Shown one piece after another: positions 2,992 to 57,700 of a stretch of 64,000 nt of DNA (position 1 is its first letter; the number at the start of each line of letters is the position of its first letter). The notes beneath the pieces are model-generated. The model saw nothing but the letters and a program-made list of their open reading frames with translations. It ran no database searches and was not told the DNA's origin. The position numbers and the translations under genes are program-made. Source of the DNA: a virus (lineage: Duplodnaviria; Heunggongvirae; Uroviricota; Caudoviricetes); IMG/VR virus record IMGVR_UViG_3300028048_000043; one strand, given 5' to 3'.

Positions 2992-3025
2992 AATCAGGCA
3001 ATATCATCCAATAGTACATTTTTCG

Positions 3026-3061
3026 GAATCCTTCGTTGTGAAACGAGGGGTTTCTTTTTTT
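3026..3061 (+). terminator. intrinsic terminator
   Basis: GAATCCTTCG-ttgtgaaa-CGAGGGGTTTC followed by a T-tract. Confidence 0.8.
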
Positions 3062-3628
3062 GTTGTCCAATGATATTGCTCAGAAGCCTCGCATCTCCTT
3101 GATACAGAAATAATTGCGCGGCAATTATTTGGGGGCTGAGACGTCCATATTTCATTGGACACTGGTGATGTCCGAATACGAGTTCCGTTGATGAAGTCAT
3201 CGTCAATAAGAGTGCCGGTCATCGCCTGCGCGGATAATTGCACGGCAATTATTCAGCCATGGGAGGCAGGAAGGAGATGAGGACTCTGATTCATGTGCGT
3301 TGCCAAAGTGTCAGTCGTGGGATGTCAATCTGGCAGGTGCGTCTGGGGATAATTGCGCGGCAATTATTTCCCTGGTAGACCGTTGGATGAACCTGGGTTA
3401 GCAATCAACTCGTCTCGTGAAGAAGATGATTGGTCTGACGAAATGTATGACGAAGATGTCTGACGCTGCACGAGTGGATAATTGCGCGGCAATTATTTTC
3501 CCATGTGACGGCGCATACCCTGGTTGCGCGGCTGGAGGTTGTATGAAAAAAGTTTGAAGAAATTTTAGTTGGGTATTGTTTATATCAAAATAAAGTGTTA
3601 TATTTGTATCAACAAAAAAGGAAATGCT

Positions 3629-3940
3629 ATGAATGAAAAAGAAATCAAATCGGTATTTGACCGCGTTTTCAACGGATTGCCTAATCCTATGTTCCCCCAC
3701 CCTTATAAGTATTTCGAGCACAAGGGCTATCTCTGCGAGTGCGCGAGTTCGGAATCGGAGTACGAGTGTGCGGAGTATGTGAGGAAAAACCTGCACAAGA
3801 CACCGCTTGCCATTTTCGGAATGGCTTTTGCTGATTGCGGAAAAGCACTTACTGTGCTGACGGCTGACGGGGAACCGACACCTTTCGGTGGCCCTTTCAG
3901 GACGGAACAGGAATTTGAAGCCTTGCTTGCCGAAATATAG
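3629..3940 (+). CDS. hypothetical protein, 103 aa
   Basis: Own promoter (3599) and terminator. Confidence 0.8.
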   Translation: MNEKEIKSVFDRVFNGLPNPMFPHPYKYFEHKGYLCECASSESEYECAEYVRKNLHKTPLAIFGMAFADCGKALTVLTADGEPTPFGGPFRTEQEFEALLAEI

Positions 3941-3968
3941 AATTCTCTCGGTTAGTTTAGTAGTGTTT

Positions 3969-4004
3969 GAAACTCTGTGCCTTATGGTGCGGAGTTTCTT
4001 TTTT
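3969..4004 (+). terminator. intrinsic terminator
   Basis: GAAACTCTG...CGGAGTTTC followed by a T-tract. Confidence 0.8.
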
Positions 4005-4555
4005 GTATTCCGACTATCTTGAGTGTGATGATGCCCGTATCCGCCATCTGCGGAAGTAAAATAATTGCGGGGCAATTATTGATGACGTCTCATCTCAAGT
4101 GCTTCAGAATGAGGCACATAACGGTTGTGATGATTTCATACCCACTGCTGTCGTCGCGATCATGAGTCGAGCGATAATTGCGTGGCAATTATTTCGTTCC
4201 GGAGAGCTGGAAGCGATCCATAGAATTTGGGTTTTGCAAAAATTATTCTTATCGTTGTAACGGAAAGAAACTCGGAGAGAAAGTCGTACTCTGATGTTGG
4301 CCGGGAAAATAATTGCGCCGCAATTATCTGCCGCAGCGCTCAGGAAGGTGAGCCTATTTTAGGCATATGTTCAGGTTGATGATGATTGGCTTGAGACCAA
4401 TGGCGCCTTTAGCCGATTCGGATAATTGCGCCGCAATTATTGATGACACGTGAAGCCCGACGTCTGTGTCGAACGTCATCGTTATAGAAAGAAATCTCTA
4501 TAGAAAATTTTTTATATAGTTTGGAAATTTAAAAACAATTCCCTATCTTTGCATT

Positions 4556-4665
4556 GGATGAAGAACGAAAGTTCTCGCCCCCCCTCATAAGTTGGTGGTT
4601 GGTGTCCATAGCATTTTTCAAGTTTCGTTTGAACCCTGCGCTAAGAGAGCGTGGGGTTCGTTTTT
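4556..4665 (+). ncRNA. candidate small RNA of about 110 nt
   Basis: TATCTTTGCA promoter at 4544, GAAC-GAAA-GTTC hairpin, only a 10-codon ORF, terminator at 4631-4665. Confidence 0.5.
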
Positions 4666-5644
4666 ATATACACGTTGTGCGAAGTATTAGTTCTCCTGGA
4701 GGAGGCGGGGACCACGAGTGAATAATTGCGGAGCAATTATTTTTATAACTGAGTCAGGCTGAGGATGTTAAGTCAGGTGTCTTCAACAAAAGCATTAGAT
4801 GATGACAAGTACTCTACTCATTCTGAAGCACTTGAGATGAGACGTCATCAATAATTGCGGCGCGATTATTTTTTCACGAAGAAGGCAAACCCTGTACTTT
4901 TTGAAGATTTTTGTCTTTTCTTTCACTTTTGTAATCAATTGATAATAATATAGTTACAAGGGAGGTTTTACCAGATTTTGGGCGGTAGCCAGACTCGTCC
5001 GATCTAATAATTGCTCCGCAATTATTTCGGGTGGACGAAGCCCGACTCTGAGGTCGAGTTCATACCGCATCGTATGGTGTCCTCACAGAATTTCTTGAAA
5101 TTTATTTGTATAGTGCAAGAAATTGTCGTATCCTTGTACTGGGAGGAAGTTGAATAATTACGTCGCAATTATTTCCCTGATGGTGAACCGGCTGACGCTG
5201 AGGATAGCAGTCCTCTTTGGCAGGAGTACATCGATGAAGAAAGGGAAGTTCTCCTGGAAGAACAGACATGGTCGATTCGATAATTGCGGGGCAATTATTT
5301 AACGGGCAAGCGTTCGGGACCTTTCTCTTCACATCACATCGCTCAACCTATGCCTGAAATAGGCTCACCTTCGAGCATGGCGATCCAAATAATTGCGCGG
5401 CAATTATTGATGACCGACGTCTGGGACCTGAGCCAGAATTAGGCATATGTTCGGATTGCCCAAACGATTTCCCACTCGTGTGGTATCGACATGGACCGCA
5501 AAATAATTGCGCCGCAATTATTTTCACATGGCAGCGTGCCCAACGATGGTGGACATCAGTGGTAAAATAGTTTCGGTTTTTCTTGTTTATATCAGAATTT
5601 TTTTGTAACTTTGAAAAAGTTAAAGAAATAAAATACAATAAGTT

Positions 5645-5809
5645 ATGACAAAATCAAAGTGCATCGCAAAAGGGTGTCCGTTTTACAAACCTGCGCATTG
5701 GGGATTTTACCACGGACAGCCGAAATACATTGACGCGTGCTGCCGCCAACTCGACATATTCATAAAGAATTTGTCAACTTGTCCGATAGAACCAAAACAA
5801 AAACGATAA
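5645..5809 (+). CDS. small Cys-rich protein, 54 aa (MTKSKCIAKGCPFY...)
   Basis: Not in the ORF track; follows promoter 5606 and precedes the next gene by 4 bp. Confidence 0.6.
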   Translation: MTKSKCIAKGCPFYKPAHWGFYHGQPKYIDACCRQLDIFIKNLSTCPIEPKQKR

Positions 5810-5813
5810 CATT

Positions 5814-6131
5814 ATGGAAACAAAAATTCTCGGTTACAATGATGAAAACCAGCAGACTATTGAAATCCGAATTACGAAAAGCAAGTACCCTTTGCTTTGG
5901 GAACGCAAGGTAAAGGAACTCACCCAGCAGGGATTGAGCGAAAGCGATGCCGAAAGGATACTTGGGGATTGGGTTGTAACGCTTGACCTTTACTACGAAA
6001 TCGGTAGCGGATTGTTCGCAGTTGAAACTGATGCGGTTGAAAGCGGTGCTATCCACTCTCCGTACTCAAACTCCGACATAGTGCCAGCAGATATGCAAGA
6101 CCAAATCCCTTCCGATGCGGTAATCATATAA
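5814..6131 (+). CDS. hypothetical protein, 105 aa
   Basis: ORF followed by a terminator at 6152-6186. Confidence 0.8.
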   Translation: METKILGYNDENQQTIEIRITKSKYPLLWERKVKELTQQGLSESDAERILGDWVVTLDLYYEIGSGLFAVETDAVESGAIHSPYSNSDIVPADMQDQIPSDAVII

Positions 6132-6319
6132 ATTCACGTAGTAGTGCTTTTGAAAATCCTCGCCTTGTGGTGGGGATTTTCTTTTTGACTTGAGTAGAGT
6201 GGCAGTGACTGCCGATCGTGCCATGGCTAAATAATTGCGCGGCAATTATTCCCTGTATCCGGATCGCGTCGTACTTCAGAGTTTTGGATCTGTTTTGTGA
6301 AATAAATACTATGTGAAGT

Positions 6320-6526
6320 TCAATAAAGTATAAAGAAGTCAATAAAGTTTTCAAGCTTACATAATAAATAAAGTCAATAAAAATTTCAAAAAGTTTTGCA
6401 TTAAATAAAGTCAATAAATTCCCCAGAAAATTTTAGAAAGTTTTAAGCTTTTTATTTCAATAAAGTTTTAGAGATTTTTCATTAGTTTATTTTGCAGATT
6501 TAGTCTTCGGAGAAATTCAATAAAGT
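6320..6526. repeat. six TCAATAAA(GT) direct repeats in a very AT-rich non-coding tract
   Basis: Copies at 6320,6339,6374,6411,6457,6517. Confidence 0.75.
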
Positions 6527-6815
6527 TAAAAAATTATAAGCTTACATATTTAAGATACCAGCTTGCTCTCTCCGAGGACGAGTTGGCTTTGCATTTTATT
6601 TTTTAAGCTCAAACATCTTATTGGTACCGAGAGAAGATGATGTCCATCGGAACTGTTCCTTAGTATTGGCGTACAGAAATAATTGCGCGGCAATTATTTT
6701 AGCATGCCTCCGGAACGACGACTCGTGGTCAGCCGAGTACCATAATATGCATAAACAAAATCCCCCACCTAAGTATGGGCGAGGGAAGTTTCGTGGGTTG
6801 AAAGAGAGAGTTGGA

Positions 6816-6983
6816 TTATGATTCGAGTGCAAGCACTACATCGAGTGGTTCTTTCGGATTGAGTGATACGAGGTGGTCGAGGATTTCATCGTAATCTCCA
6901 TAGTGACCTGCCATTAGTCTTCCGTAAAATCCCTGTGACATAGCAAGTGATTTGATTGTGTTGTGGATTTGTTCGCGGTTCAT
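6816..6983 (-). CDS. hypothetical protein, 55 aa (LAMSQGFYGRL)
   Basis: Not in the ORF track; promoter at 7045-7052 and an A-rich start. Confidence 0.75.
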   Translation of the reverse strand: MNREQIHNTIKSLAMSQGFYGRLMAGHYGDYDEILDHLVSLNPKEPLDVVLALES

Positions 6984-7696
6984 TTTTCTATTTCGTTTAT
7001 TGAGTTTGACAATAGCGCTTGTTGTTTTATTCCTTTAACTGATACAAAGGTACAAAATGTTTTTCATATAAACAAGAGGGTTCAGAATTATTTTTTAACT
7101 AATTACAACAATACTGATGATACTGTTGGCCGCGGCGTCCTCCAGTAAATAATTGCGCGGCAATTATTGGATCGACCATGTCCCGATTGACGTCACTCGG
7201 CAGTTGAGTTCAGCAGTCTGCTGTCGCCTCTACATCATCGCCTGCGGGCTGCACAGCACATAATTGCGCCGCAATTATTTGGATCGCCATGATGTCCTGC
7301 GCTGGTTGACCATTGTCGGTGGGCGGATAACAAAAAGAAAAAGGGACACCTTATCGGTATCCCTTTGTGGGCGCGGCAAGCACATAGAAAATTAAGCGCC
7401 CTAATAGTTAAAGAAATAAATCCTGCATAGAAAGCAGGTATAGGTCTATCCTAATTCGGCTACATCTACATATCCTATCTCTCGCGTGACATCTCCGTAG
7501 TATATCCGTAGTTGTTTTTGTCTATAATAAACAATGACAACATACCATATTTATTTCATTCTTCAAGGTAGATAACGCAAACTCTCCGTGAGCTGATGAA
7601 CTCTTTCTGAATTTTTTCAGTCAGTGTAAGCATAGCGTTTCGTTTTTTATCCAATGCAAATATAAGGAAATTTCCTTATATTTCCAAATTATAACT

Positions 7697-7915
7697 CTAA
7701 TATTCCATAATGCCGGAAACATATTCCTCTATGAACTCCCTTACATCAATGTCGTTCGTGAGGTCGCAGTCTTCCCTGTGTATGCAGAAATCATCGTGCC
7801 TGTCTTCGTTCTGGTTGAGGTAAATCTCGCAGTAGTATCCACCTTCGTTTGGATCCACATCTTTTATGGCGTGTACCCACACCTTTGTTCCTCTGCCGGT
7901 AGTTGCTCTAACCAT
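7697..7915 (-). CDS. hypothetical acidic protein, 72 aa
   Basis: Promoter at 7938-7945. Confidence 0.75.
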   Translation of the reverse strand: MVRATTGRGTKVWVHAIKDVDPNEGGYYCEIYLNQNEDRHDDFCIHREDCDLTNDIDVREFIEEYVSGIMEY

Positions 7916-8209
7916 AATGCATTTTCTTTTCTCAAAACAAAGGTAGGAATTATTTCGGAATAAAACAAGGATTTTCTTCAAAATATTTCAAGGAATTTTA
8001 TGAGAAATAATATGAGAAATAATGTCAAAAAATAATCCGAGTTTCTTGAGAAGATCGGCTCCACTGTTCCGGGTGAAATAATTGCGCGGCAATTATTTTG
8101 GCATGCTCGATGGGCCCTCTTGGTTGCCCACCGTATGTCCGAGGTGGAAATAAAAAAGACCACCCCAAGTTTGGGGCAGTCTTCTATCCGTGTTGTGAAA
8201 GTGGTGTTG

Positions 8210-8752
8210 TCAGTCTTCGTTGAAGTAGTTTCCGTAAGGGGTGTCAGGAGTGAGGTCTTTGAACTGCAACTTGCGTACTGGCGGCTGTCCGTCAAAGTAG
8301 GTGTTGTATATTCTAATGGCATCGTCTTCGTTGAGGTCTCCGTCTTCGTACTGGTCGCAGTCTTGATAAAACTCGTTGACAAACTCTGGATTGTTTGCGT
8401 ATTCAGCGCAGAAATCGTTAAGCCCCATACAAGCCCAAGTCAGCTCGATATTCTTGTAGTCGGGGTCTCCCTTGTAAAGATAGCCGAGAATGTGAATGAC
8501 TTTGTTTCCGTTCGGGTCGTAGTAGATTTGATAAAAATCCCCAGTGACGGCTTTCGTGATAGGAGCGTTCGCTTCGTGAACTTCGTAGTTCCACGAAAGT
8601 CCTGCACCTTTAAGGAATCCGTATGCAATACTGCTCGCTTCTTCCTTTGTATCCGCCTTGATGTCAAGGGTTACTGGAACTTCCGTTTCCTTTCCATCGA
8701 TGTGGATTGTCGCTTTTGCGGCAACGATGAATTGTTTGAGTTCTTTTTCCAT
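8210..8752 (-). CDS. hypothetical protein, 180 aa
   Basis: Promoter at 8775; terminator near 8152-8181. Confidence 0.85.
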   Translation of the reverse strand: MEKELKQFIVAAKATIHIDGKETEVPVTLDIKADTKEEASSIAYGFLKGAGLSWNYEVHEANAPITKAVTGDFYQIYYDPNGNKVIHILGYLYKGDPDYKNIELTWACMGLNDFCAEYANNPEFVNEFYQDCDQYEDGDLNEDDAIRIYNTYFDGQPPVRKLQFKDLTPDTPYGNYFNED

Positions 8753-9079
8753 AATGTTATTTCTTTAACTATTACAAAGATAGTGATTTTCAACGAGAAA
8801 AACAAATGTTTCTGATATGAAATTTCATTTATTTGTTGAGGCGATTGCCCACAGATGAGGAGAGTGGCAGCACAGGTAATAATTGCGGCGCAATTATTTT
8901 TATGGCCCATGTCGAGTCCGCCGTCGATCGCTCTGGTGCCTTCGAGTCTCGCACAGGTAATAATTGCCGCGCAATTATTTGCCGCGCCCAGACGCCGTCG
9001 CCTCCTTGCCCAGTGCGGTGGTAAAAAAAAAGGACTGACAAATTGTCAGCCCTTTGTGTCTTGTGTGTCAGTCGCGGTG

Positions 9080-9949
9080 TTAGGCGGCAAAGAGTTTCTG
9101 TGCCTTGCCACGAAGTTTCTCGTAGCATTGCAGTCTTATCTGGCGCACCCTTTCGGCACTGCAACCGATAATCTCCGCTATCTGCTTGTCGTCCCTCTCA
9201 ATCCCGTCAGTCATACCGACCGAGAGTTCAAGGATTTTCCTGTCCCTTTCGGAGAGTGTGGAAAGCAGGCGGTCAAGGTTGTAGGCGGTGCTTTCCCTCT
9301 CTATCTCAATCTCCACCTCGTTCCTGCTTGCGGTCATAACTGCGATTTCTCCGCTTTCCTCAACGGTAGTACCGTCCTCGTCAATCGTGTTGTTGATTGA
9401 AGTGATTTTGTGGGTGCGAACATCCGAGCCAATCTTCGCCACATCCCTTCCGATTTCCGCGTTGATTGCATCCACAATCTCGTCATCGGTCATATACCTG
9501 CCGTTCTCTGCGAAGTATTTGTCCTGCATACGGCTTGCCCTCGCAGAAAGTCTGCAACCGACTTTGTTGCGTACGGTCTGCCCGTTTGCATCGTAGTATT
9601 CGCTGATTTCCTCGCGCATCCAGTGAACGGCATAGGAAAGAAAACGGAAACCCTTTGTGGGGTTGAAGTCCTGCATTGCGCGAATCATACCGATAGCGGC
9701 GCAGGAAATAAGGTCGTCCACATCGTTTCCCCTTGCGAACTTTGATGCAAGAGAATAGATGAAGCGCAGGTTGTGGTTCACGAGAGAATCCTTTGCGCTC
9801 TCGTCTCCCTCGCGCTGATAGCGGTCGATAAGTGCAAGTTCTTCCTCTGCGGAAAGAGTGGTGTACCGCTTTGCTTCCATAAGGAAAGCGTCAGTTGTGC
9901 GTGTGCGTGCCTTGATGCTGGTCTTGCAGACATTGATTGTTCGTGCCAT
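9080..9949 (-). CDS. RNA polymerase sigma-70 family factor (RpoD/sigma-ABfr-like, no region 1.1)
   Basis: Region 1.2 (LSAEEELAL), region 2 (NLRFIYSLA...GMIRAMQDFNPTKGFRFLSYAVHWMR), region 4 (LSERDRKIL...IAEIIGCSAERVRQI). Confidence 0.95.
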   Translation of the reverse strand: MARTINVCKTSIKARTRTTDAFLMEAKRYTTLSAEEELALIDRYQREGDESAKDSLVNHNLRFIYSLASKFARGNDVDDLISCAAIGMIRAMQDFNPTKGFRFLSYAVHWMREEISEYYDANGQTVRNKVGCRLSARASRMQDKYFAENGRYMTDDEIVDAINAEIGRDVAKIGSDVRTHKITSINNTIDEDGTTVEESGEIAVMTASRNEVEIEIERESTAYNLDRLLSTLSERDRKILELSVGMTDGIERDDKQIAEIIGCSAERVRQIRLQCYEKLRGKAQKLFAA

Positions 9950-10308
9950 AGTTGGTAAGTGTTTAGATGTTTTATTGTTTTTTTAACTACTGCAAAGGTA
10001 ATAATAATTTTTGAACTTACAAATATATATACGGATTAAATAACAAATTCTTTCAAAAAATTTTCACTTTTTTATCATTGCCTTGCATACCTTATAATAA
10101 CGAATAGTGTGCCAGTGAGACAAACCTGACAAATTGGCAGACTTGATGATACCCTGATGACCAGCCAAGTCGCGACTCGCATGGCAGAATAATTGCGCCG
10201 CAATTATCTTTACCCGGCTCTGGCGTTTGGATCCATTGGACAGTATATACCGGGAAACAAAAAAGGCTGACATAAAGCCAGCCCTTTCATAATGTGTTCG
10301 GTGTTGTA

Positions 10309-10908
10309 TTATTTTTCGCTGAACAAGTATTCGAGAAGACCTTTCAGGTCTTTTGTTGATAGCAGGGACATATCCCTCCATATAGGCTCTCCGTTGAACT
10401 CGTTATCGCGGTAGATGTGATACCACATTGTTCCGTCTCCCTCAACCTGAAACACCTTATCAACATAAGGGATTTCGAGGCTGCTGAGACCACAGGCTTC
10501 TTCTTCGTAGGACGGAAGTGTGTACTCAATCTCCTTAGGAGTTTCCTCGGAAGTTCCGTTAAGCAGAGCGGAAATCTGATGCCAATACTTTTCGTGTTCG
10601 CAGACATCTTCGTCGAACCAGCAGTCGCACTCGTGGCAGTGCCAATGATATTCATTGTAGCAGTCGTCGTCTCCCATCCATTCGATGTTCTCCGAACCAC
10701 AGTAGGGGCAAACCTTAGGAGTTTCCGGCAACGGCTCGCTTTTGACAAGGTCGCAATCGACGGTAGAGAAATCGTCTCCCCACTCATTCGTCGGAGTTTC
10801 AAGTGCAGTTTCGAGCGCCTTAGTCCTTGCCTCGGCTTCATCCTCAGCATCGACAGTTACCAAAAGTGATAACGGAAGTGTGATAGCAAAAGTGTAATTC
10901 TTTTTCAT
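10309..10908 (-). CDS. hypothetical protein with Zn-ribbon, 199 aa
   Basis: CPYC...CHEC; own promoter and terminator. Confidence 0.85.
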   Translation of the reverse strand: MKKNYTFAITLPLSLLVTVDAEDEAEARTKALETALETPTNEWGDDFSTVDCDLVKSEPLPETPKVCPYCGSENIEWMGDDDCYNEYHWHCHECDCWFDEDVCEHEKYWHQISALLNGTSEETPKEIEYTLPSYEEEACGLSSLEIPYVDKVFQVEGDGTMWYHIYRDNEFNGEPIWRDMSLLSTKDLKGLLEYLFSEK

Positions 10909-11172
10909 AATGTGCTTGCTTTAATTGGTTTCTTTAACTATTGTAAAGATAGTGATTTTCAACGAGAAAACCAAATAATTCGACAAGATTTTCAGCGAAA
11001 ACAGATCTGAAGAAGAGGTACTCTCCGACATTGAAATAATTGCGCCGCAATTATTTTCTGGTGCAGGACTCTCCTCATCTTTCTCTCCGCCTTTGTAAAA
11101 AATATTTGGAAATGAAATTCCTTTTACCTATATTTGCAAACAGAAACACAAATCAAAAAATCTCTTACTACT

Positions 11173-11604
11173 ATGGCTGTCAAAGATGAAATCTTAATCG
11201 TGAAAAGCGAGATGAACTTGAAATCATCGAGTATGAACTTCAAGACTTCGGCTGACGAACTCTATTCAGCTATCGTTGATTTCGTGAAGTACCGCAGGGG
11301 ATATATTAACTTCTGCGGCAATATGGAGCTTGACATCGAGACCGCTATCGGTGTTGACGCGACCAACGGGGTGTTCGAGAATATTATCCGTGCAGTAAAG
11401 GTCGAAGACGGATTACTATCCGTATTCATTGTGCCTATGGAAGACAGGAATGTGGTGTGGTCGAACGAAGACATCGCTTCCGAAGACTACAAGGACTATT
11501 GGTATTCAGTTACCAGAGGTTCTGAGCTTTTCTTCGAGCAGACGCTTTACCACCTTTCATATCTTCTCGAACGCTGGGAAGAATATTGGGTTGAAGAACA
11601 ATAG
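11173..11604 (+). CDS. hypothetical protein, 143 aa
   Basis: Promoter 11129; terminator 11657-11690. Confidence 0.8.
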   Translation: MAVKDEILIVKSEMNLKSSSMNFKTSADELYSAIVDFVKYRRGYINFCGNMELDIETAIGVDATNGVFENIIRAVKVEDGLLSVFIVPMEDRNVVWSNEDIASEDYKDYWYSVTRGSELFFEQTLYHLSYLLERWEEYWVEEQ

Positions 11605-12242
11605 ATGAAATTTCATTTGTAGGTTTCAGAATAGAACAAGGTATCATAATGTCATTAGGGCGTGGCTTCGGCTTCGCCCTTTTGTTTTTTATGGAATTTC
11701 ATTTTGCCGACAAAGAGATCTCATCAAGACACCAGGTATCCGGACGGTAATAATTGCCGCGCAATTATTTTGGATCGCCATCCAGAATCACGACTCTTTC
11801 TCTGGATCCATTTTCGTTTTTGTTTCAGGATTCAAATTCATTTTTAACGAATAATATTTTTGAAAAATTTTTACAAAACTTTTTCTTGTTTTATTTCATA
11901 AAAAATAGTATATTTACATTAGAAACTTTAATAGAAAATGCTATGAGAAAAAGACAATAAATTTTGTTGGGAAAAGCTCGCGAACTATTTTGACACATTC
12001 GTAGAAGTTTAAGGAATATGAAACTTTTCAAGAGAGGAAACATCGAAAGGTGTTTCCTTTTTTGTTGCCCAATGATATTGCTCAGAAGCCTCGCATCTCC
12101 TTGATACAGAAATAATTGCGCCGCAATTATTATTCGTCCGACGCCGTCGATCGCCGGTGGACACAGGTAATGAAATTTCTTCGTGTATGATTTTGAATTG
12201 TCAATATAATTCGCTATATTTGCAATAAGAAAATAAAACACT

Positions 12243-12536
12243 ATGGATAACAAGAAAATCACAGTAAGGGATATGGATAGGTTCAGCCTTACCATTCTCA
12301 AAAACAGAAAGGAAGTAGAGGTACACGGATACCTGCTTAACTATGAACGTGGCGCACAGGCAAAGGAAGACGGATACCACCGCTACGGAATACGTCACAG
12401 CGACTATGACGATTCCTGCCCCTCAACTCTCGAACCCAATGTAACGGTCAACTGGTACGGGGATTTTTTCTGCGAAGAAGAAATTTCTTTCGACGAGATT
12501 GATTGCATCACTATTGTAGATTGGAACTACGAATAA
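12243..12536 (+). CDS. LPD28-like (large polyvalent protein-associated domain) protein
   Basis: YGIRHSDYDDSCPSTLEPNVTVNWYG resembles the LPD28 pattern YxxRHxDxxxxxPxxxExxVxVNxxG (recalled, not searched). Confidence 0.55.
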   Translation: MDNKKITVRDMDRFSLTILKNRKEVEVHGYLLNYERGAQAKEDGYHRYGIRHSDYDDSCPSTLEPNVTVNWYGDFFCEEEISFDEIDCITIVDWNYE

Positions 12537-12786
12537 AATACTACCGCTAATATAACAAGCATTATCCCTCGCCCATTTCGGGTGGGGGATTTTGTTTTAC
12601 CAAACTCGCTGGTCAACCAGACGCCGTCTGAGGCATGCAGAAATAATTGCGCCGCAATTATTTACTGGTGCAGCACTCTCCTCATCCTGCTGAACAGTAT
12701 CACGAGATTTGTTAAAATTTGAACAATTCTTTATTTGGAAGTGTCAAAATAATTTCCTATCTTTGCAATAAGAAAAACGAAAAGTT

Positions 12787-13242
12787 ATGGAACACAATGA
12801 CGACATCATCAGCCTGTTCTCCTGTAATGTAAGGGGAAAGACATCAAAACTCTTTATCATCAACCGCAACCACACCGACGAGATCGTTTATGCGGTGTCT
12901 TGGAACGATGTGGTGGACTATGTAAAATCCCATCCGGGCTATCCTGTCGAAATCAAACCAATCAACGCTACATTCATTCCTCGCAGACTCAATGTTATGG
13001 CGGAAGGAAATGTAGTCAATGTGGTACGCACGGGAGACTACAAGTACGAAGTGGCGGACGATTTCAGCGAAAAGGAAACAGACCAGTACGGCTATACCAT
13101 TCAGCCATACGACTTCGTAAGAGTAAGCGGTTCTGCGGAGACATACGAAATCCAGTTCATCCACAGAGGCAGGCTGTTCCTGCTTGGGAACGACGGAAGC
13201 GAAATCGAAGTTCTACCGTCGCAGGTCTGGAAAGAAATTTAA
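12787..13242 (+). CDS. hypothetical protein, 151 aa
   Basis: Promoter 12758; terminator near 13287-13325. Confidence 0.85.
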   Translation: MEHNDDIISLFSCNVRGKTSKLFIINRNHTDEIVYAVSWNDVVDYVKSHPGYPVEIKPINATFIPRRLNVMAEGNVVNVVRTGDYKYEVADDFSEKETDQYGYTIQPYDFVRVSGSAETYEIQFIHRGRLFLLGNDGSEIEVLPSQVWKEI

Positions 13243-13629
13243 TTCCAATATCCAAACCATTTAACATTTTTTACTTCAATCATTGAAAGTCCCTCAACGG
13301 AAGTTGGGGGATTTTTTTTTTTTCATTCCCGTCGAGGTGAACCCCGTCTTCACCGGAGGCTTGGCGTAACGAAATAATTGCCGCGCAATTATTTGCCGCG
13401 GCCGATCGCACGAACAGTGTGGACAGTTATCCGATTTACGATTTATGAATCGTGAATTTCCTTTGTAACTTATTGAATATAAAGAAATCCCACGATGCAA
13501 GTTTTTGCAATTATATTGAAATTTTATTTCAAAAAATAAAATGAAATTTCTTTGTAAAAAAGTTTGGAATTTAATCAGAAATTTCCTACATTTGCAATAG
13601 GAAAAAGAAACAATAAAACTTTATTTGTT

Positions 13630-14124
13630 ATGGGTTACACACATTACTTCAATTTCAAAAACGACTGCGCGCCGCAGGACATCGACAACGCCTGCTCGAA
13701 ATTCAAGAGAGCCGTCGAACTTTTCAAGGAAGGTCTCAAACTTCAAGGGAATAAACTTCCCTACGAAAGAATCATTTACAACGAAGACTGGACTGTCAAG
13801 GAAAGGGTTCAGGAAAATGCGAACCTTGTTCTTACCGGCGGTGACGGAACAGGCGATCCTACCATTACGGACACCGATGTCATCTTCAACGGAAATCCGT
13901 CCTGTGAGACATTCGCTATCTGCATCGACAAGCCCGGCTGGGATTTCTGCAAGACCAATCGCCGGCCTTACGACTTCGCAGTATGTCTTGCGCTTCTCTG
14001 TTTCAAGGAAGCTTTCGGTGACGACTTCTCTTTCCGTTCAGACGGAGACATCGAGAACGGCGAGGAGGGCTGGGGTCGCGCAAAAGAAATCTTCCGTCTT
14101 CTCTTTGACGACAAGGAGGATTAG
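13630..14124 (+). CDS. conserved-type hypothetical protein, 164 aa (MGYTHYF...FCKTNRRPYD)
   Basis: Promoter 13587. Confidence 0.85.
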   Translation: MGYTHYFNFKNDCAPQDIDNACSKFKRAVELFKEGLKLQGNKLPYERIIYNEDWTVKERVQENANLVLTGGDGTGDPTITDTDVIFNGNPSCETFAICIDKPGWDFCKTNRRPYDFAVCLALLCFKEAFGDDFSFRSDGDIENGEEGWGRAKEIFRLLFDDKED

Positions 14125-14127
14125 GCT

Positions 14128-14403
14128 ATGAAAAAGTTCATTCTCTTAATAGTGGCAACGCTTCTTGTATCATCCTGTTTCTGCGACGGTTTCGGAGATT
14201 TCGGGTACGGATACAATCAGCAACCCGGAACAACGATCAACCAGAGTGTTGACGGAATTTCCCAAAGTGTCGTAACCGACAGCGGCTCAGACATCACGGC
14301 AATCATTTCTATACGGAGAGGAGTTGCCAATGATACGACTGTCGTCAATCCGCCTCAACAAAAGCAACAGTCAGAAAATCCGCCTCACCTAATTCCTATT
14401 TAG
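14128..14403 (+). CDS. putative lipoprotein, 91 aa
   Basis: MKKFILLIVATLLVSSC: signal peptide with lipobox. Confidence 0.65.
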   Translation: MKKFILLIVATLLVSSCFCDGFGDFGYGYNQQPGTTINQSVDGISQSVVTDSGSDITAIISIRRGVANDTTVVNPPQQKQQSENPPHLIPI

Positions 14404-14733
14404 GCTTCGGCTTCCATAGTAGTAGTGTTTCCTTTTTTCGAGACCCTCGGACATGTTCCGGGGGTTTCATTTTTTTTGTTGAACTCGGACTTCCGTCCAC
14501 GACATTCGTCCAGGTGGGCTGCAAAAATAATTGCGCCGCAATTATTTGTTCATGGGTACCCTTCGCTCTTGGCAGGCGCTCTCCTTCTTCGGATTCCGAT
14601 AATTGCGCGGCAATTATTTCCATTCGGGCATCTGACGATGTTCATCATCAACATCCCTCTTTCGGTACCGCGAAATTTCTTTTGGAATTGTCAGACCTTT
14701 TCACTATATTTACATTACAAAGGAAATTTCATT

Positions 14734-14928
14734 ATGGATTACATTAAACATATCAGCAAAAAGACATTTGAAGAAATGTACGGAAAGGTTGAACCTACAA
14801 CTCTTTCCCAGAGACCGATAAATAAGAAGACGGGAAAGCCGTACACGAAAAACTCTATCACCTATTGGCGTTGGTGGCACGGGTTGTCCTTAAACGACAA
14901 GTGTGTACTCGCTGACCTTGAAGCTTAA
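14734..14928 (+). CDS. hypothetical basic protein, 64 aa
   Basis: A-rich start after a promoter-like TATATTTAC. Confidence 0.7.
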   Translation: MDYIKHISKKTFEEMYGKVEPTTLSQRPINKKTGKPYTKNSITYWRWWHGLSLNDKCVLADLEA

Positions 14929-14947
14929 AATAAAAAGAAATTTCAAT

Positions 14948-15181
14948 ATGGCAAAGAACTACACCATACCTAATGTCGGAGACAAAATCCGCATTATCAA
15001 AATGGACGACAGCATCAACGGCGTACCCGGAAAGGACTGGCAGGTTCAAAAGATGAACGGAAATGTATATGAGGTTGAGGCTATCGAGCCTGCGCCGCAC
15101 GACGAAGTGAATATCAAGCTCGTCGGCACTGGTCTCCGTGTAATACCCGGAGTGGACGAATACGAAATCGTCAAGAAGTAA
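14948..15181 (+). CDS. DUF4314-like small beta-barrel protein, 77 aa
   Basis: GDKIRIIKMDD...LRVIPGVDEYEIV pattern; terminator 15206-15238. Confidence 0.55.
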   Translation: MAKNYTIPNVGDKIRIIKMDDSINGVPGKDWQVQKMNGNVYEVEAIEPAPHDEVNIKLVGTGLRVIPGVDEYEIVKK

Positions 15182-15467
15182 TTCCATAACATCTTTTCCT
15201 ATTGAAGTCCTCCACCTTGTCGGTGGGGGATTTCTTTTATTATGCGCATCGAATGGATCTACCGGCGTCGGGGCTGCGCGTACAAAAATAATTGCGCGGC
15301 AATTATTCGGATCGCCTGCTGTCGCTTCCAGGAAATCAAATCTCTTTTAAGAAAAAATTTCAAATTATTTTTCTTTATTTTTTCTTGAAAAAATTATGGG
15401 ATTTTATTTGGAAAATATCTTGAAAAATACTATATTTGCAATAGTTAAAGAAACAAAGACAACTACT

Positions 15468-15881
15468 ATGGCAACAAATGTATTAAAGTATTCTGCGGTG
15501 GCTGAGGCTAACTGGAAAGCAAATCTCGGCGATATGTCTTCCTACAAGCCGAAGTACACATTTTATTCGGACTTCGCAATAGCGGAATTTTATTTCGTTT
15601 ATGGAAAAGACAAAAACTCCATAAAGGAAACCTACGACAGAGTAATCAAATCGTGGTCGAGTTCCTATGAGGCGTTAACTGAAATCATTCTTGTCCTCAA
15701 CCACAAAATTTGGGCGTTCTTTCAGGATGTCGATACGCAATATCTCGGAATCGACAAGGAGAAAGGAAAGGAAATCGCAGGGATTTACAACGAACTCTGG
15801 AAGAAGACGGAAGATCTTTTCTTCAAGCTGTATGAGAACAACGACGATGCTATGAGCCACTACTACGAAGTGACTGACTGA
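15468..15881 (+). CDS. conserved-type hypothetical protein, 137 aa (TFYSDFAIAE...LVLNHKIW)
   Basis: Promoter 15431; terminator near 15912-15950. Confidence 0.85.
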   Translation: MATNVLKYSAVAEANWKANLGDMSSYKPKYTFYSDFAIAEFYFVYGKDKNSIKETYDRVIKSWSSSYEALTEIILVLNHKIWAFFQDVDTQYLGIDKEKGKEIAGIYNELWKKTEDLFFKLYENNDDAMSHYYEVTD

Positions 15882-16140
15882 CAAACTCACGGAATTTGCC
15901 TAATTCCCAAACCGATACCCTTTGATGCGAGGGGTGTCGGTTTTTGTTTTTGTACTACACAATGCCCACCACACTGGTCAACCAGACGCCGTCTGGGGCA
16001 TGCAGAAATAATTGCGGCGCAATTATTTTAATCGCGGCATCCGGCGATGCCCATTGGCCAAGTGTCTTGGGATAAATAAAATGAAATTTCATTTGGAAGT
16101 CTAACAAAGATTTACTATATTTGCATCAAAGAAAGAAGTT

Positions 16141-19224: not shown

Positions 19225-19508
19225 GAGGTTTAACCAAATCAAGTTTCCATAGCTTTTCTGTCAGAACCGAACCGACGATATGTTGGCTCGGTTCGCTTTT
19301 TCATGTCATTCTGCATGGAATTTCCATGCGAACCCCATGCACAGCATGCAAAGAAAATAATTGCGGCGCAATTATTTCTGTACGCATCTCTGAGGATATT
19401 TTCCAAAATAAAATCCAAAAAATAAAATGAAATTTCTTTTGTAAAAAAGTTTGGAATTTAATCAGAAATTTCATATCTTTGCAATACAGAAACAAAAACA
19501 GAAAAGCT

Positions 19509-20117
19509 ATGCCAAACTGGAACTTTACAACTTATCATGTTACAGGCGACCCTAAGAAGTGCCTCGACCTCTACAAGAAAATCAAATCCCTCGACGAAAT
19601 GGAAACCTCTCTCTGTGAGAACGGTTTCGGAAAGCTCTGGTGCGGAAATCTCGTACACCTGCTCGGCGGCGACGAGACCGACGCAGAAAACTTGTATTGC
19701 AGGGGACAAATCGTCATATATGAGCTTAAACCGAACTTCGATGTTACGTTCTCGGTAGAATCCGCTTGGGGAGAACTCAGCCAGTTCAGACATTTTATCG
19801 AGGATCGAATCGGCGGTATCAAGATATACCACATATCCGAAGAACCCGGCATACAAATCTTCGTGTCGAATGACATCGAGGGAAAGTATTTCAAGTATAA
19901 CAAATACTACCTCGACATCTGCGACGATGAAAAGGAAATTTATGCGACCGATTACTTCGCAGACTTGAAGGGAGCGAAGAAACTCCTCAACAAAGTTTAC
20001 AAGGGAGTGAGGTTCGGAAAGACCTTCGAGGAAATCAAGGCGAAGATTGCAGAGTTGGAGGAAAACAATGAAGACATCTGCATCTGCTTCGAGAAATTTA
20101 AGTTAATCGACAACTAA
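19509..20117 (+). CDS. YubB/DUF1281 ferredoxin-like domain protein, 202 aa
   Basis: MPNW start, ESAW and EEPG motifs (recalled family pattern). Confidence 0.55.
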   Translation: MPNWNFTTYHVTGDPKKCLDLYKKIKSLDEMETSLCENGFGKLWCGNLVHLLGGDETDAENLYCRGQIVIYELKPNFDVTFSVESAWGELSQFRHFIEDRIGGIKIYHISEEPGIQIFVSNDIEGKYFKYNKYYLDICDDEKEIYATDYFADLKGAKKLLNKVYKGVRFGKTFEEIKAKIAELEENNEDICICFEKFKLIDN

Positions 20118-20362
20118 ACGATTTCTGACATAACTTTTTTGGAACTGCATAGGGAAACCTGTGCAGTTTCTTTTTGTACTCCGACGGCAATGACCAACAT
20201 CAAGGAGTGGGTACCCAAAGAAAAATAATTGCGGCGAAATTATTTGAATCGCGGCAGTGTCCAATGACCGGCATCAACATAAATGAAATTTCTTCTGCAT
20301 TATGTTTGGAACTTACAAACTTTTTGCCTATCTTTGCAGTACAGAAACAAAAAACAAAAGTT

Positions 20363-22640: not shown

Positions 22641-22913
22641 CATTTCTCAGTCATAGTTTAATTTCTTGAATTTCCCTTTCCGATTTTTTCGGATTGGGAA
22701 ATTTTTTTGTTTGGTCTGGTTGAGGGATTTGGTTTCCTGGAAGGAGGGTATCAACAGAAAAATAATTGCGCCGCAATTATTTCTGAACGCAGGTCGTGAC
22801 CAATAATCTGGATAATTTCCAAAAAATAAAATGAAATTTCTTTTGTAAAAAAGTTTGGAATTTATTCTGGAATTTCCTATATTTGCAATACAGAAACAAA
22901 AACAGAAATCGTT

Positions 22914-34994: not shown

Positions 34995-35035
34995 CCTGAG
35001 CTATCATATAATAGAATATTATATGATAGCTCAGG
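34995..35035. repeat. perfect 19-bp-arm inverted repeat with a 3-bp spacer
   Basis: CCTGAGCTATCATATAATA-GAA-TATTATATGATAGCTCAGG. Confidence 0.9.
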
Positions 35036-35177
35036 CGTGAGTGATCTGGTAATGATGCAGAAAAAATAATTGCGCCGCAATTATTTTGAACACACGTTCA
35101 TCCCAACTCTGCGGTTAAAAATAAATTTGGAAATTGAAAAATTTATCCCTATCTTTACATTGATAATGTGTATAGAT

Positions 35178-56399: not shown

Positions 56400-57700
56400 G
56401 GAAGATACCGTATATGAAAATCTATAAAAACTTATGAATTTTCACTTCCTGATTCACAGAACCACAGTTTCTTAGGCTCCGAAGAGCGGTCGTCCACTGT
56501 TGGGTTCTCCGCAGGCTTTAATTCGGGAGTACGGCTCCCTATTATTCTTAATCCTTCGCTAAGGATGTTTATTGCGGCATTTTCATCCCTGTCGTGCTTC
56601 GTTCCGCATATAGGGCATTTCCATTCTCTTTCGCTAAGACGCAAATTGTCGTATTTATATCCACAAGTATGACAGAGTTTTGAACTTGGGTAGAACCTAC
56701 CAACCTCCACAACTACCTTTCCGTTAACGAACGCCTTATATTCAAGGATAGACTTGAACTTATACATCCCAACTTCCTGTACGGCATTTGCAATATGATG
56801 ATTTTTCATCATTCCCGATACATTCAAGTTCTCGATGCAAATGGTGTCGTAGTTGAAAAGCAGGGAATTAACAACCTCGTGGATATATGCTTCCTTCTGG
56901 TTCGCAATGTGTTCAGAAAGTTTTGCAATCTTTAAACGAATCTTGTTCCTGTTATTAGAGTCCAATTTCTTCCGAGATAGTTGCTGTTGCAAGCGAGCCA
57001 TCTTTTTTTTGTTGGCACGGTTGAAATGCTTGTTTTCAAAAACCTCCCCGTCGCTCGTTACCGCAAAGTCTTTAACCCCGATATCAACACCCACTAACAA
57101 TCCGGTTTGTTTGAACTTCACGAACGCCTCGTTTGGAAACTCCACAAGGACAGATAACTCGTACTTACCCGATTTGGTTTTCGTCAGGGTTGCACTTCTT
57201 ATTGCGTCATGGAAGTTCCTGAGGCGGTTCCAATACAACTTGGAGCAACGGAACGGTATGTTTTTGAAGGATTTCGTGAGAGTAATATGTCTTGTCTCAA
57301 AGGTATTGTTTCTTGAGATTGCCTCCAAGGGAAACAGGGCGGTCTGTGCATCCTTCTTAGATTTGAATTTAGGGTATCCCTTGTGGTTGTTGAAGAAATT
57401 GTCATATGCAGACATCATCTGTCTGATAGCCTGTTTCATCACCTTCGTGTTCTGTTCCTTCAGCCAAGAGAAGTTCTCGTCTTGGAGAAGTTCGCCATGA
57501 AAATGTTTGGACAAGTCTGTAATGGCAAGGTTTTGCTTTGTTTCCTTGTAGGCATTCATCTTGTAATCGAGCATGTGATTATAAACAAATCTGTAGCAGC
57601 CAAGGAGTTTGTTGAATTCAACTTCCTGTCGCTTATTAGGATATAGTCTTATTTTCACTGCTCTTAGCATAGAAAGTCAATTTGGGTTATACCCAATAAT
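56400..57700 (-). mobile_element. solo-TnpB (IS1341-like, no TnpA) element; ends approximate
   Basis: Hairpin TTGGGT-ATA-ACCCAA at 57681-57695 just upstream of the ATG; no transposase gene nearby. Confidence 0.6.
56432..57670 (-). CDS. tnpB: IS200/IS605-family RNA-guided endonuclease TnpB
   Basis: N-terminal HTH (KIRLYPN...GCYRFVYN); RuvC D (GVDIGVKD), E (IENLNV), D (HDRDENAA); CHTC/CPIC Zn finger. Confidence 0.95.
   Translation of the reverse strand: MLRAVKIRLYPNKRQEVEFNKLLGCYRFVYNHMLDYKMNAYKETKQNLAITDLSKHFHGELLQDENFSWLKEQNTKVMKQAIRQMMSAYDNFFNNHKGYPKFKSKKDAQTALFPLEAISRNNTFETRHITLTKSFKNIPFRCSKLYWNRLRNFHDAIRSATLTKTKSGKYELSVLVEFPNEAFVKFKQTGLLVGVDIGVKDFAVTSDGEVFENKHFNRANKKKMARLQQQLSRKKLDSNNRNKIRLKIAKLSEHIANQKEAYIHEVVNSLLFNYDTICIENLNVSGMMKNHHIANAVQEVGMYKFKSILEYKAFVNGKVVVEVGRFYPSSKLCHTCGYKYDNLRLSEREWKCPICGTKHDRDENAAINILSEGLRIIGSRTPELKPAENPTVDDRSSEPKKLWFCESGSENS

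Follow-up and report, generated by a model that had tools for sequence, protein, structure and literature searches.

A 64,000-nt stretch of the tailed-phage record IMGVR_UViG_3300028048_000043 (Caudoviricetes), referred to below as the window, contains 47 copies of a 21-bp palindrome, AATAATTGC-NNN-GCAATTATT (9-3-9, at most two mismatches), which did not occur once in 100 shuffles. An earlier note, made from the letters of the window, had proposed that the sequences flanking these palindromes are mosaics whose identity breaks at the palindrome core, and that this is the footprint of recombination at the sites. Recombination at the palindromes, with reassortment of half-sites, is supported by the present analysis: four indels running from core to core (2057, 486, 111 and 71 bp) were observed between wild strains. 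What had been proposed from mosaics within one genome now rests on population-level events, i.e. natural variants. The explanation preferred here, with a probability of roughly 0.6, is that the palindrome is an intergenic site recognised by a protein and doubles as a short-homology crossover point, at which the general recombination and replication of the phage would rearrange the units between the sites.

Occurrence and placement of the palindromes

The window belongs to a metagenomic contig of 313,587 bp (ENA ERZ27252073 k141_717600) from a rumen phage, for which the best DNA match is a bovine gut run. A motif scan combined with gene calls showed that the palindromes span positions 2225-35085, the variable part of the window with its small genes, and that all 47 are intergenic (stored gene calls). 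None was found at 35.1-64 kb, the half that holds the replication genes, or in the 4.2 kb to the left of the window. Each of the 17 strong intrinsic terminators at 2-22 kb, whichever strand it is on, is followed by a core 48-63 nt downstream in the direction of transcription (mean 56, standard deviation 4.6); the terminator at 15909-15943 (+ strand), found by a terminator scan, is an example of one preceding a site. The -33 box of the next promoter follows after a further ~50-90 nt. This terminator distance, together with the TTTG/TAnnTTTG promoters downstream, places the cores after terminators and before promoters. The units between cores are self-contained and hold 1-3 small genes; most have their own TTTG-N19-20-TAnnTTTG promoter and all that were tested have their own terminator. 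In the spacers at 2.2-5.6 kb the palindromes also form gene-free arrays, mostly of four sites (seven at 4721-5502), spaced 109-156 bp.

The cores are surrounded symmetrically by GC-rich shoulders of ~30 nt, with a GC content of 53-67% at +5 to +31 that drops to 26% by +45 (regional mean 42%). Position +8 is G or C in ~90% of the half-sites, and an S-S preference is seen at +8/+9.

Flank mosaics within the genome

The six observations on flanks made in the earlier note were confirmed: they are present in the sequence and go beyond chance. The left flank of site 3109 (3050-3108, + strand) matches that of site 12111 (12052-12110) at 57 of 59 positions and touches the core in both copies. Within this match 3067-3119 and 12069-12121 are identical (53/53); the likeness extends leftward to ~3050/12052 and breaks at the third base of the triplet, where, all cores being alike, a break can be placed only somewhere within the 21 bp and not at a particular base. 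The right flanks of these two sites are at random level. Similarly, 12609-12651 and 15974-16016 agree at 42 of 43 positions with unrelated right flanks; here the left flank of site 12642 (12609-12641, + strand) is shared, up to the core, with that of site 16007 (15974-16006, 32/33). The right flank of site 12642 (12663-12686, + strand) is instead related to 11056-11079, the right flank of site 11035 (23/25 for 12662-12686 versus 11055-11079), and these two sites do not resemble each other on the left. Site 12642 is thus a chimera, since it shares its left flank with 16007 and its right flank with 11035 while the other sides are unrelated.

Inverted sharing was found as well. The segment 4072-4113 is the exact reverse complement of 4817-4858, so that the right flank of site 4060 (4081-4113, + strand) recurs in inverted form as the left flank of site 4850 (4817-4849). 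The flank TGGATCGCC touches the core on the right of 7259 and, inverted, on the left of 25071 and of 5388, and lies one T further out on the right of 11749. The right flank of 18105 is similar to the left flank of 16964 in inverted form, with a single indel between them.

A self-comparison of the window with the cores masked yielded 42 significant repeat pairs. In three of these, namely 12052-12110/3050-3108, 15974-16006/12609-12641 and the inverted pair 4817-4849/4113-4081, both copies extend right up to a core (distance 0). Most of the other pairs are promoter/leader modules lying 36-130 nt to one side of a site, such as the TTTG-N19-20-TAnnTTTG module at 19414-19504 (+ strand), which is 94.5% identical to 22818-22908. 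In the 12 nt beside the core, 25 pairs of half-flanks match at 10 positions or more, whereas 200 shuffles gave 1.0 such pairs on average and never more than 5. The half-flanks form families whose members occur on both sides of the cores in outward orientation, which fits the reassortment in both orientations that had been claimed; the family TTTGCATGCA, for example, has three members on the right and three on the left, and TGGATCGCC has three and two, respectively. No pair of sites has flank families in common on both sides, and the steps in identity are sharp, from 97-100% on one side of a core to random level on the other.

Exchange events between wild strains

Strain X4, an independent bovine run of 2025 (Logan SRR32996067) that is ~3% diverged from the window, was compared by means of its assembled contigs L157, L161 and L162. 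L161 has a single hybrid site (1844) in which the left half of the palindrome at 4173-4193, with its left flank, is joined to the right half of that at 6230-6250, with its right flank; nine letters at the joint 4173->6231 fit both sides. The right partner is also the exact end of a homology block (5644-6255) common to a relative of the Ga0265301 type. Ten sites, a small-RNA-like unit and the genes at 5645-6131 are absent from X4 in this 2057-bp event. Sequence comparison suggests that this is probably a deletion in X4, because the gene pair of the segment is present in outgroups.

In L157 an extra segment lies between two copies of the site at 8077-8097, which is thus doubled in X4, 486 bp apart; one copy has the left flank of the window site and the other its right flank. 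L162 has an extra unit at the site at 11035-11055, located between the divergent genes 10309-10908 (-) and 11173-11604 (+), which is a 71-bp doublet in X4. The start of its spacer resembles the right flank of window site 8878. The fourth event was found among phages of the Ga0265301 type, where L165 has one hybrid site and L163, from a different sample, has two sites 111 bp apart. This is the sole difference between the two contigs, whose identity on either side amounts to 100% (1599 nt) and 99.6% (771 nt). Since both sites are kept in two other relatives, L060 among them, L165 carries a 111-bp deletion. Chimeras from k=31 assembly are unlikely, because the paired sites never share 30 identical bases in the four events. 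An inversion with its ends at cores was not seen directly between strains.

Of the structural differences, roughly 9 in all, 4 are due to cores, although these occupy just ~3% of the region. The cores are not the exclusive junctions: leader/promoter modules, gene ends and replacement of genes away from cores are at least as common. In L161 the window segment 6768-7030 with a 55-aa gene is swapped for 615 nt with a 177-aa gene, one end of the replacement lying 70 nt away from a core and the other at a promoter module, and in L157 a 148-aa gene is inserted at a gene end. Numerous contig joints and loose ends fall on leader modules, on start codons or on the ends of genes; at 19484->20340, for instance, one leader is joined to another, and 14 letters are shared. 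Exchange thus occurs at several kinds of repeated intergenic module. A loose end at 14547, which continues as the right flank of 35065, was not counted, as it may be a 35-kb contig aligning by its core to a stretch without 35065; the joint 22000->19354 was left out as the same possible alignment artefact.

Constraint on the palindrome arms

Between the window and X4 the arms of the palindrome show no change in 480 positions, where ~14 changes would be expected at 3% divergence. The central triplet changed at 4 of 81 positions and the 30-nt flanks at 64 of 1491 (4.3%), compared with 173 of 6405 (2.7%) in genes and 116 of 3854 (3.0%) in other spacer. Arm variants within the genome are not accompanied by compensating changes on the opposite arm. 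The arm sequence itself is therefore kept, and not just its ability to pair, whereas the triplet and shoulders are free to change. These are the features of an operator, i.e. two inverted half-sites of conserved sequence around a free spacer, and the same arms with other triplets are found in a relative. Judged from the sequences, such a pattern points to a symmetric protein that recognises the site, or else to constant homogenisation, and not to an RNA structure.

Relatives and the search for an enzyme

No near relative of the phage was found in INPHARED, and IMG/VR held no contig with several copies of the motif. A scan of metagenome contigs for the motif identified Ga0265301_10000195 (97.5 kb), which has 22 sites in 9.7 kb, as well as further contigs of this type from several samples (L163-L170). 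Outside the variable region this type is collinear with the window phage, and site 35065 has a positional counterpart in it. The arms ATAATTGC/GCAATTAT are kept, while the triplets are CAA/CGA (TTG/CGG on the other strand) versus GCC/GGC/GCG/GTG in the window. A 242-kb, more distant phage with the same pair of 54- and 105-aa genes and a sigma factor of 54% identity has no palindrome family, which indicates that the palindrome system is lineage-specific.

Pfam and PHROG scans of 30 window proteins detected no recombinase, HUH enzyme or helix-turn-helix protein, and neither the window nor the 4.2 kb preceding it yielded a recombinase. The Ga0265301-type relative encodes a 381-aa IntDOT-like tyrosine recombinase (L060 8093-9238) at 1.8 kb beyond the array edge, and a 328-kb relative has a gene of the same 381-aa length beside a gene-poor stretch. 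The 312-aa protein that adjoins the array edge in the window is unrelated to this integrase. Homologues with 81% and 72% identity occur in other jumbo-phage contigs that lack the palindrome family within 10 kb; the integrase thus fails to track the sites. It was pursued as the enzyme of the arrays and rejected, its close homologues being found in phages without arrays.

IntDOT-like tyrosine recombinases of 379-389 aa, with arm-binding, SAM-like and catalytic domains, are widespread in this group of jumbo phages (L060, the 328-kb relative, L292 and L294). None was present in the 68 kb of the window phage that were examined.

Comparison with known systems

Large phages keep counter-defence and host-takeover genes in fast-changing regions, and how such regions are rebuilt is known in detail only for the T4-type coliphages, which carry promoter-early stem-loop (PeSL) cassettes (Arbiol et al. 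2010, PMC2839356; Comeau et al. 2014, PMC4122927). For these cassettes homologous recombination between repeated intergenic motifs has been proposed, and no dedicated enzyme was found (PMC2839356). PeSLs have also been examined for mini-circles excised by exchange of neighbouring motifs. The palindromes resemble PeSLs in being short, conserved and intergenic, in their concentration in the hyperplastic, ORFan-rich part of a large phage of lytic type, and in bracketing small-gene units that are expressed on their own. In both systems the junctions of indels or replacements that distinguish close relatives fall in the motif, a crossover in RB49 having been mapped to the loop, and in both no dedicated recombinase was found (here in the window and 4.2 kb upstream) and homologous recombination is proposed. 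The anatomy differs. A PeSL motif combines a sigma-70 promoter with a G/C-rich terminator hairpin, whereas terminator, promoter and palindrome are three separate elements here; moreover, the palindrome is AT-rich and perfectly symmetric, lies 56 nt past the terminator, has GC-rich shoulders and forms gene-free arrays. By analogy, the best reading is a PeSL-like system with a different anatomy. It would represent a second solution to the same task, in which an uncultured 313-kb rumen phage relies on a discrete, strictly conserved palindrome distinct from promoter and terminator alike.

Integron attC sites and CALIN elements also consist of cassette arrays split by palindromic sites, with chimeric sites after exchange and some non-coding cassettes. 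However, no intI-like gene is found at the array of the window. The attC sites are imperfect palindromes of 57-141 bp with R''/L''/L'/R' boxes, in contrast to the perfect 21-bp palindromes described here, and the segments between the palindromes, unlike attC, have no excess of structure, as their folding does not surpass that of shuffled sequences (z -2.4 to +1.2, in most cases close to 0). Integron cassettes are promoterless and depend on a common promoter, whereas most units here have promoters of their own.

REP elements are bound by gyrase and IHF. The REP/BIME elements with their RAYT transposases (PMC3333891) are, like the palindromes, high-copy extragenic palindromes that are often clustered and have been implicated in rearrangements and protein binding. 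Unlike in these systems, no Y1_Tnp match was obtained among the 30 window proteins, and the conserved 5' GTAG is missing, none being found next to the cores. REPs are transcribed 3'-UTR (3'-untranslated region) elements of chromosomes, while the palindromes lie beyond terminators, in a phage.

The stoperators of cluster A mycobacteriophages are another case of one short site present in dozens of intergenic copies in a phage genome, as the palindromes are, and they are bound by a single phage protein. Stoperators are asymmetric and oriented with transcription, and their phages are temperate, with a known repressor. They are not known to serve as cassette junctions.

Proposed mechanism and alternative explanations

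In the preferred explanation the palindrome would be an element acting at the DNA level, most likely bound by a symmetric, putatively dimeric, protein. Units would be ordered as terminator, ~56 nt, palindrome, ~50-90 nt, promoter and 1-3 small genes. Since these 19-21 bp are present 47 times and have the same sequence on either strand, they could act as portable short homologies, by means of which the general recombination and replication machinery of the phage may delete, duplicate, insert and probably invert whole units. The outcome would be chimeric sites, gene-free arrays of 70-150-bp units and a fast turnover of accessory genes. The strict conservation of the palindrome implies a primary function, for which a protein-binding boundary or insulator site between units is favoured. 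By comparison with the T4-type phages, the most economical mechanism would be the one proposed for PeSLs, with repeated intergenic motifs serving as short homologies. General homology-driven exchange predicts junctions at other repeated modules too, in agreement with the joint 19484->20340. More specifically, exchange at the cores may be short-homology recombination or slippage between repeats of 19-33 bp, in place of a site-specific reaction catalysed by an enzyme.

Several points weigh against this explanation. An identity of 21 bp is short for efficient homologous recombination, yet the cores contributed 4 of the ~9 differences despite the presence of leader repeats of 25-91 nt. A simple model of operator plus homology fails to account for the ~30-nt shoulders, the S-S preference and the gene-free arrays. 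The triplet repertoire is lineage-specific (GCS/GYG versus CAA/CGA), which hints at homogenisation or copying of sites. Furthermore, no cognate binding protein was identified, with no helix-turn-helix or other DNA-binding family among the window proteins scanned; the enzyme search covered 64 kb plus 4 kb of the 313-kb genome.

The alternative that survives best, though we consider it unlikely, is a dedicated site-specific 'phage integron', in which a recombinase or nuclease recognises the palindrome as an 8-3-8 site, cuts in or near the triplet and moves cassettes as circles. The precise location of junctions within cores and the strict conservation of the arms agree with this. So do neighbouring sites with mirrored outer bases and equal triplets (2499 A..C/GTG then 2612 G..T/GTG; 4308 A..C/GCC then 4421 G..T/GCC), since such mirrored variants are expected from the integration of a circle with one site; in the relative, however, mirrored outer bases are no commoner than chance. 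The tyrosine recombinase near the array edge of the Ga0265301 type, with its counterpart of equal length in the 328-kb relative, would be a candidate enzyme, but its homologues occur in contigs without the palindromes and the window has no recombinase of its own at the array. Tyrosine and serine recombinases require matching overlap bases, and a 3-nt spacer suits neither class (loxP/FRT/dif and Hin/Gin sites). The heterogeneity of the central triplets and the many junctions outside cores also argue against a reaction of this type.

A doubtful variant is that a phage or host protein nicks or cuts the palindromes, perhaps after extrusion of the AT-rich core between GC-rich clamps, and thereby starts cassette exchange. 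The shoulders would then be GC-biased repair footprints of short heteroduplex tracts, and the shared flanks of 33 nt (12609-12641 and 4081-4113) would be single conversion tracts. If true, jumbo phages would possess a self-contained system for cassette exchange that has no need of an integron-type integrase.

It is improbable that the core with its ~30-nt shoulders is a small MITE- or REP-like mobile element, or the preferred target of one, and that copy-and-paste insertion instead of exchange made the mosaics. The family is lineage-specific, being absent from the 242-kb relative, the triplet repertoire is concerted within a lineage, the GC-rich shoulders appear foreign in AT-rich spacers, and gene-free units of 71-150 bp have been gained or lost between strains. 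Recent copies should look alike, however, while the shoulders of different copies are mostly unrelated and evolve at least as fast as other spacer. The sole transposase-like gene of the window encodes a TnpB far from the sites, neither a Y1/RAYT gene (among the 30 window proteins) nor a GTAG-type REP signature was detected, and the only unit-sized event that could be polarised is a deletion.

A role of the palindrome as RNA hairpin (terminator, processing or stability element), with incidental flank mosaics, is very improbable. The core can form a hairpin with a 9-11-bp stem and a triloop (-7.6 kcal/mol, z about -5 to -6.5), and runs of A and T flank the palindrome. This stem is AT-rich and weak, however, and in every tested unit the palindrome follows a strong GC-rich terminator and precedes the next promoter. 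Covariation would be tolerated if structure alone mattered, whereas the arms are invariant across the strains and in the distant relative and their variants are never compensated. Extension of the hairpin by pairing between the flanks is not general (mean 12 pairs, many sites 0-6).

Whole-cassette duplication followed by drift, with a core that has no role, had been named in the earlier note as one of the findings that would speak against exchange; although the repeated promoter/leader modules show that intergenic pieces are duplicated here, this explanation is hardly tenable, as identity falls to random within the core with no gradient of decay, sharing is one-sided and the indels between strains end inside cores.

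The exchange events caught in wild populations provide exact junction coordinates for polymerase chain reaction or long reads, and the 21-mer can be used as bait for a binding protein. In addition, cassette boundaries in related metagenomic phages can be located simply by searching for the motif.

Arrays and other features of the window

The first gene-free array (2225-2632; sites 2225, 2358, 2499 and 2612, spaced 113-141 bp) precedes the promoter of the gene at 2767-2991, and the second (3109-3497; sites 3109, 3233, 3348 and 3477) lies between the terminator at 3025-3054 and the promoter of the gene at 3629-3940. The third and fourth arrays (4060-5522) comprise 11 sites, from 4060 to 5502, surrounding a promoter-terminator unit at 4544-4665. 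In this unit a promoter (TATCTTTG box) and a strong terminator (4630-4660) bracket ~110 nt without a credible open reading frame, which gives it the look of a small RNA. The arrays contain no tRNA and no known RNA family. Helical phasing of the 109-156-bp spacings was considered and rejected, as there is no constant remainder modulo 10.5. Among the metatranscriptome contigs listed (X2), gene bodies are covered, the contigs stop short of the sites and the arrays are uncovered; this is at most a weak hint and was not used as evidence.

Immediately before the first palindrome lies a C-rich tract with CCCC/CCC runs (2107-2215). The Ga0265301-type relative has the tract at the corresponding array edge (L060 6340-6447), with ~70% nucleotide identity over 150 nt, and it may be a fixed boundary of the variable region. 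At the other end, a near-perfect inverted repeat of 41 bp (34995-35035) lies between divergent genes, 30 bp from the last palindrome at 35065. Three doublets of sites spaced 71-81 bp were found (8878-8979 and 14526-14618 in the window, 1089-1180 in L162), whose short spacers are mutually related; the unit seems to move, or to recur, as a doublet.

One metatranscriptome contig is circularly permuted over exactly 19521-20162 (642 nt), position 20162, inside a terminator, being joined to 19521, which lies 12 nt past the start codon of the gene at 19509-20117. It could derive from circular RNA or DNA, a tandem copy or a library artefact.

According to the protein scans, the window encodes a family-B DNA polymerase, a UvrD-type helicase, an Rnl1-type RNA ligase and two sigma-70-like factors; it also contains seven tRNAs. 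The TnpB gene (IS605 OrfB/Cas12f-like; 56432-57670) is intact and located between the helicase and RNA-ligase genes, with no palindrome of the family nearby.

The promoters of the window are of the Bacteroidota type. Homologues of the IntDOT-like integrase with ~50% identity were found in metagenome-assembled genomes (MAGs) of Paludibacteraceae, which hints at this group as host. A motif scan of 185,579 species genomes for a clue to the host returned scattered single matches and unrelated repeat families (a Ferruginibacter MAG, a Clostridia MAG and Paenibacillus). The Ferruginibacter MAG (L190, L203, L219, L224 and L239) has unrelated dispersed repeats with the same 8-3-8 palindrome, ATAATTGC-NNN-GCAATTAT, and conserved flanks of their own. 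This is probably a coincidence, but the half-site common to these repeats and the phage could reflect a similar type of binding protein.

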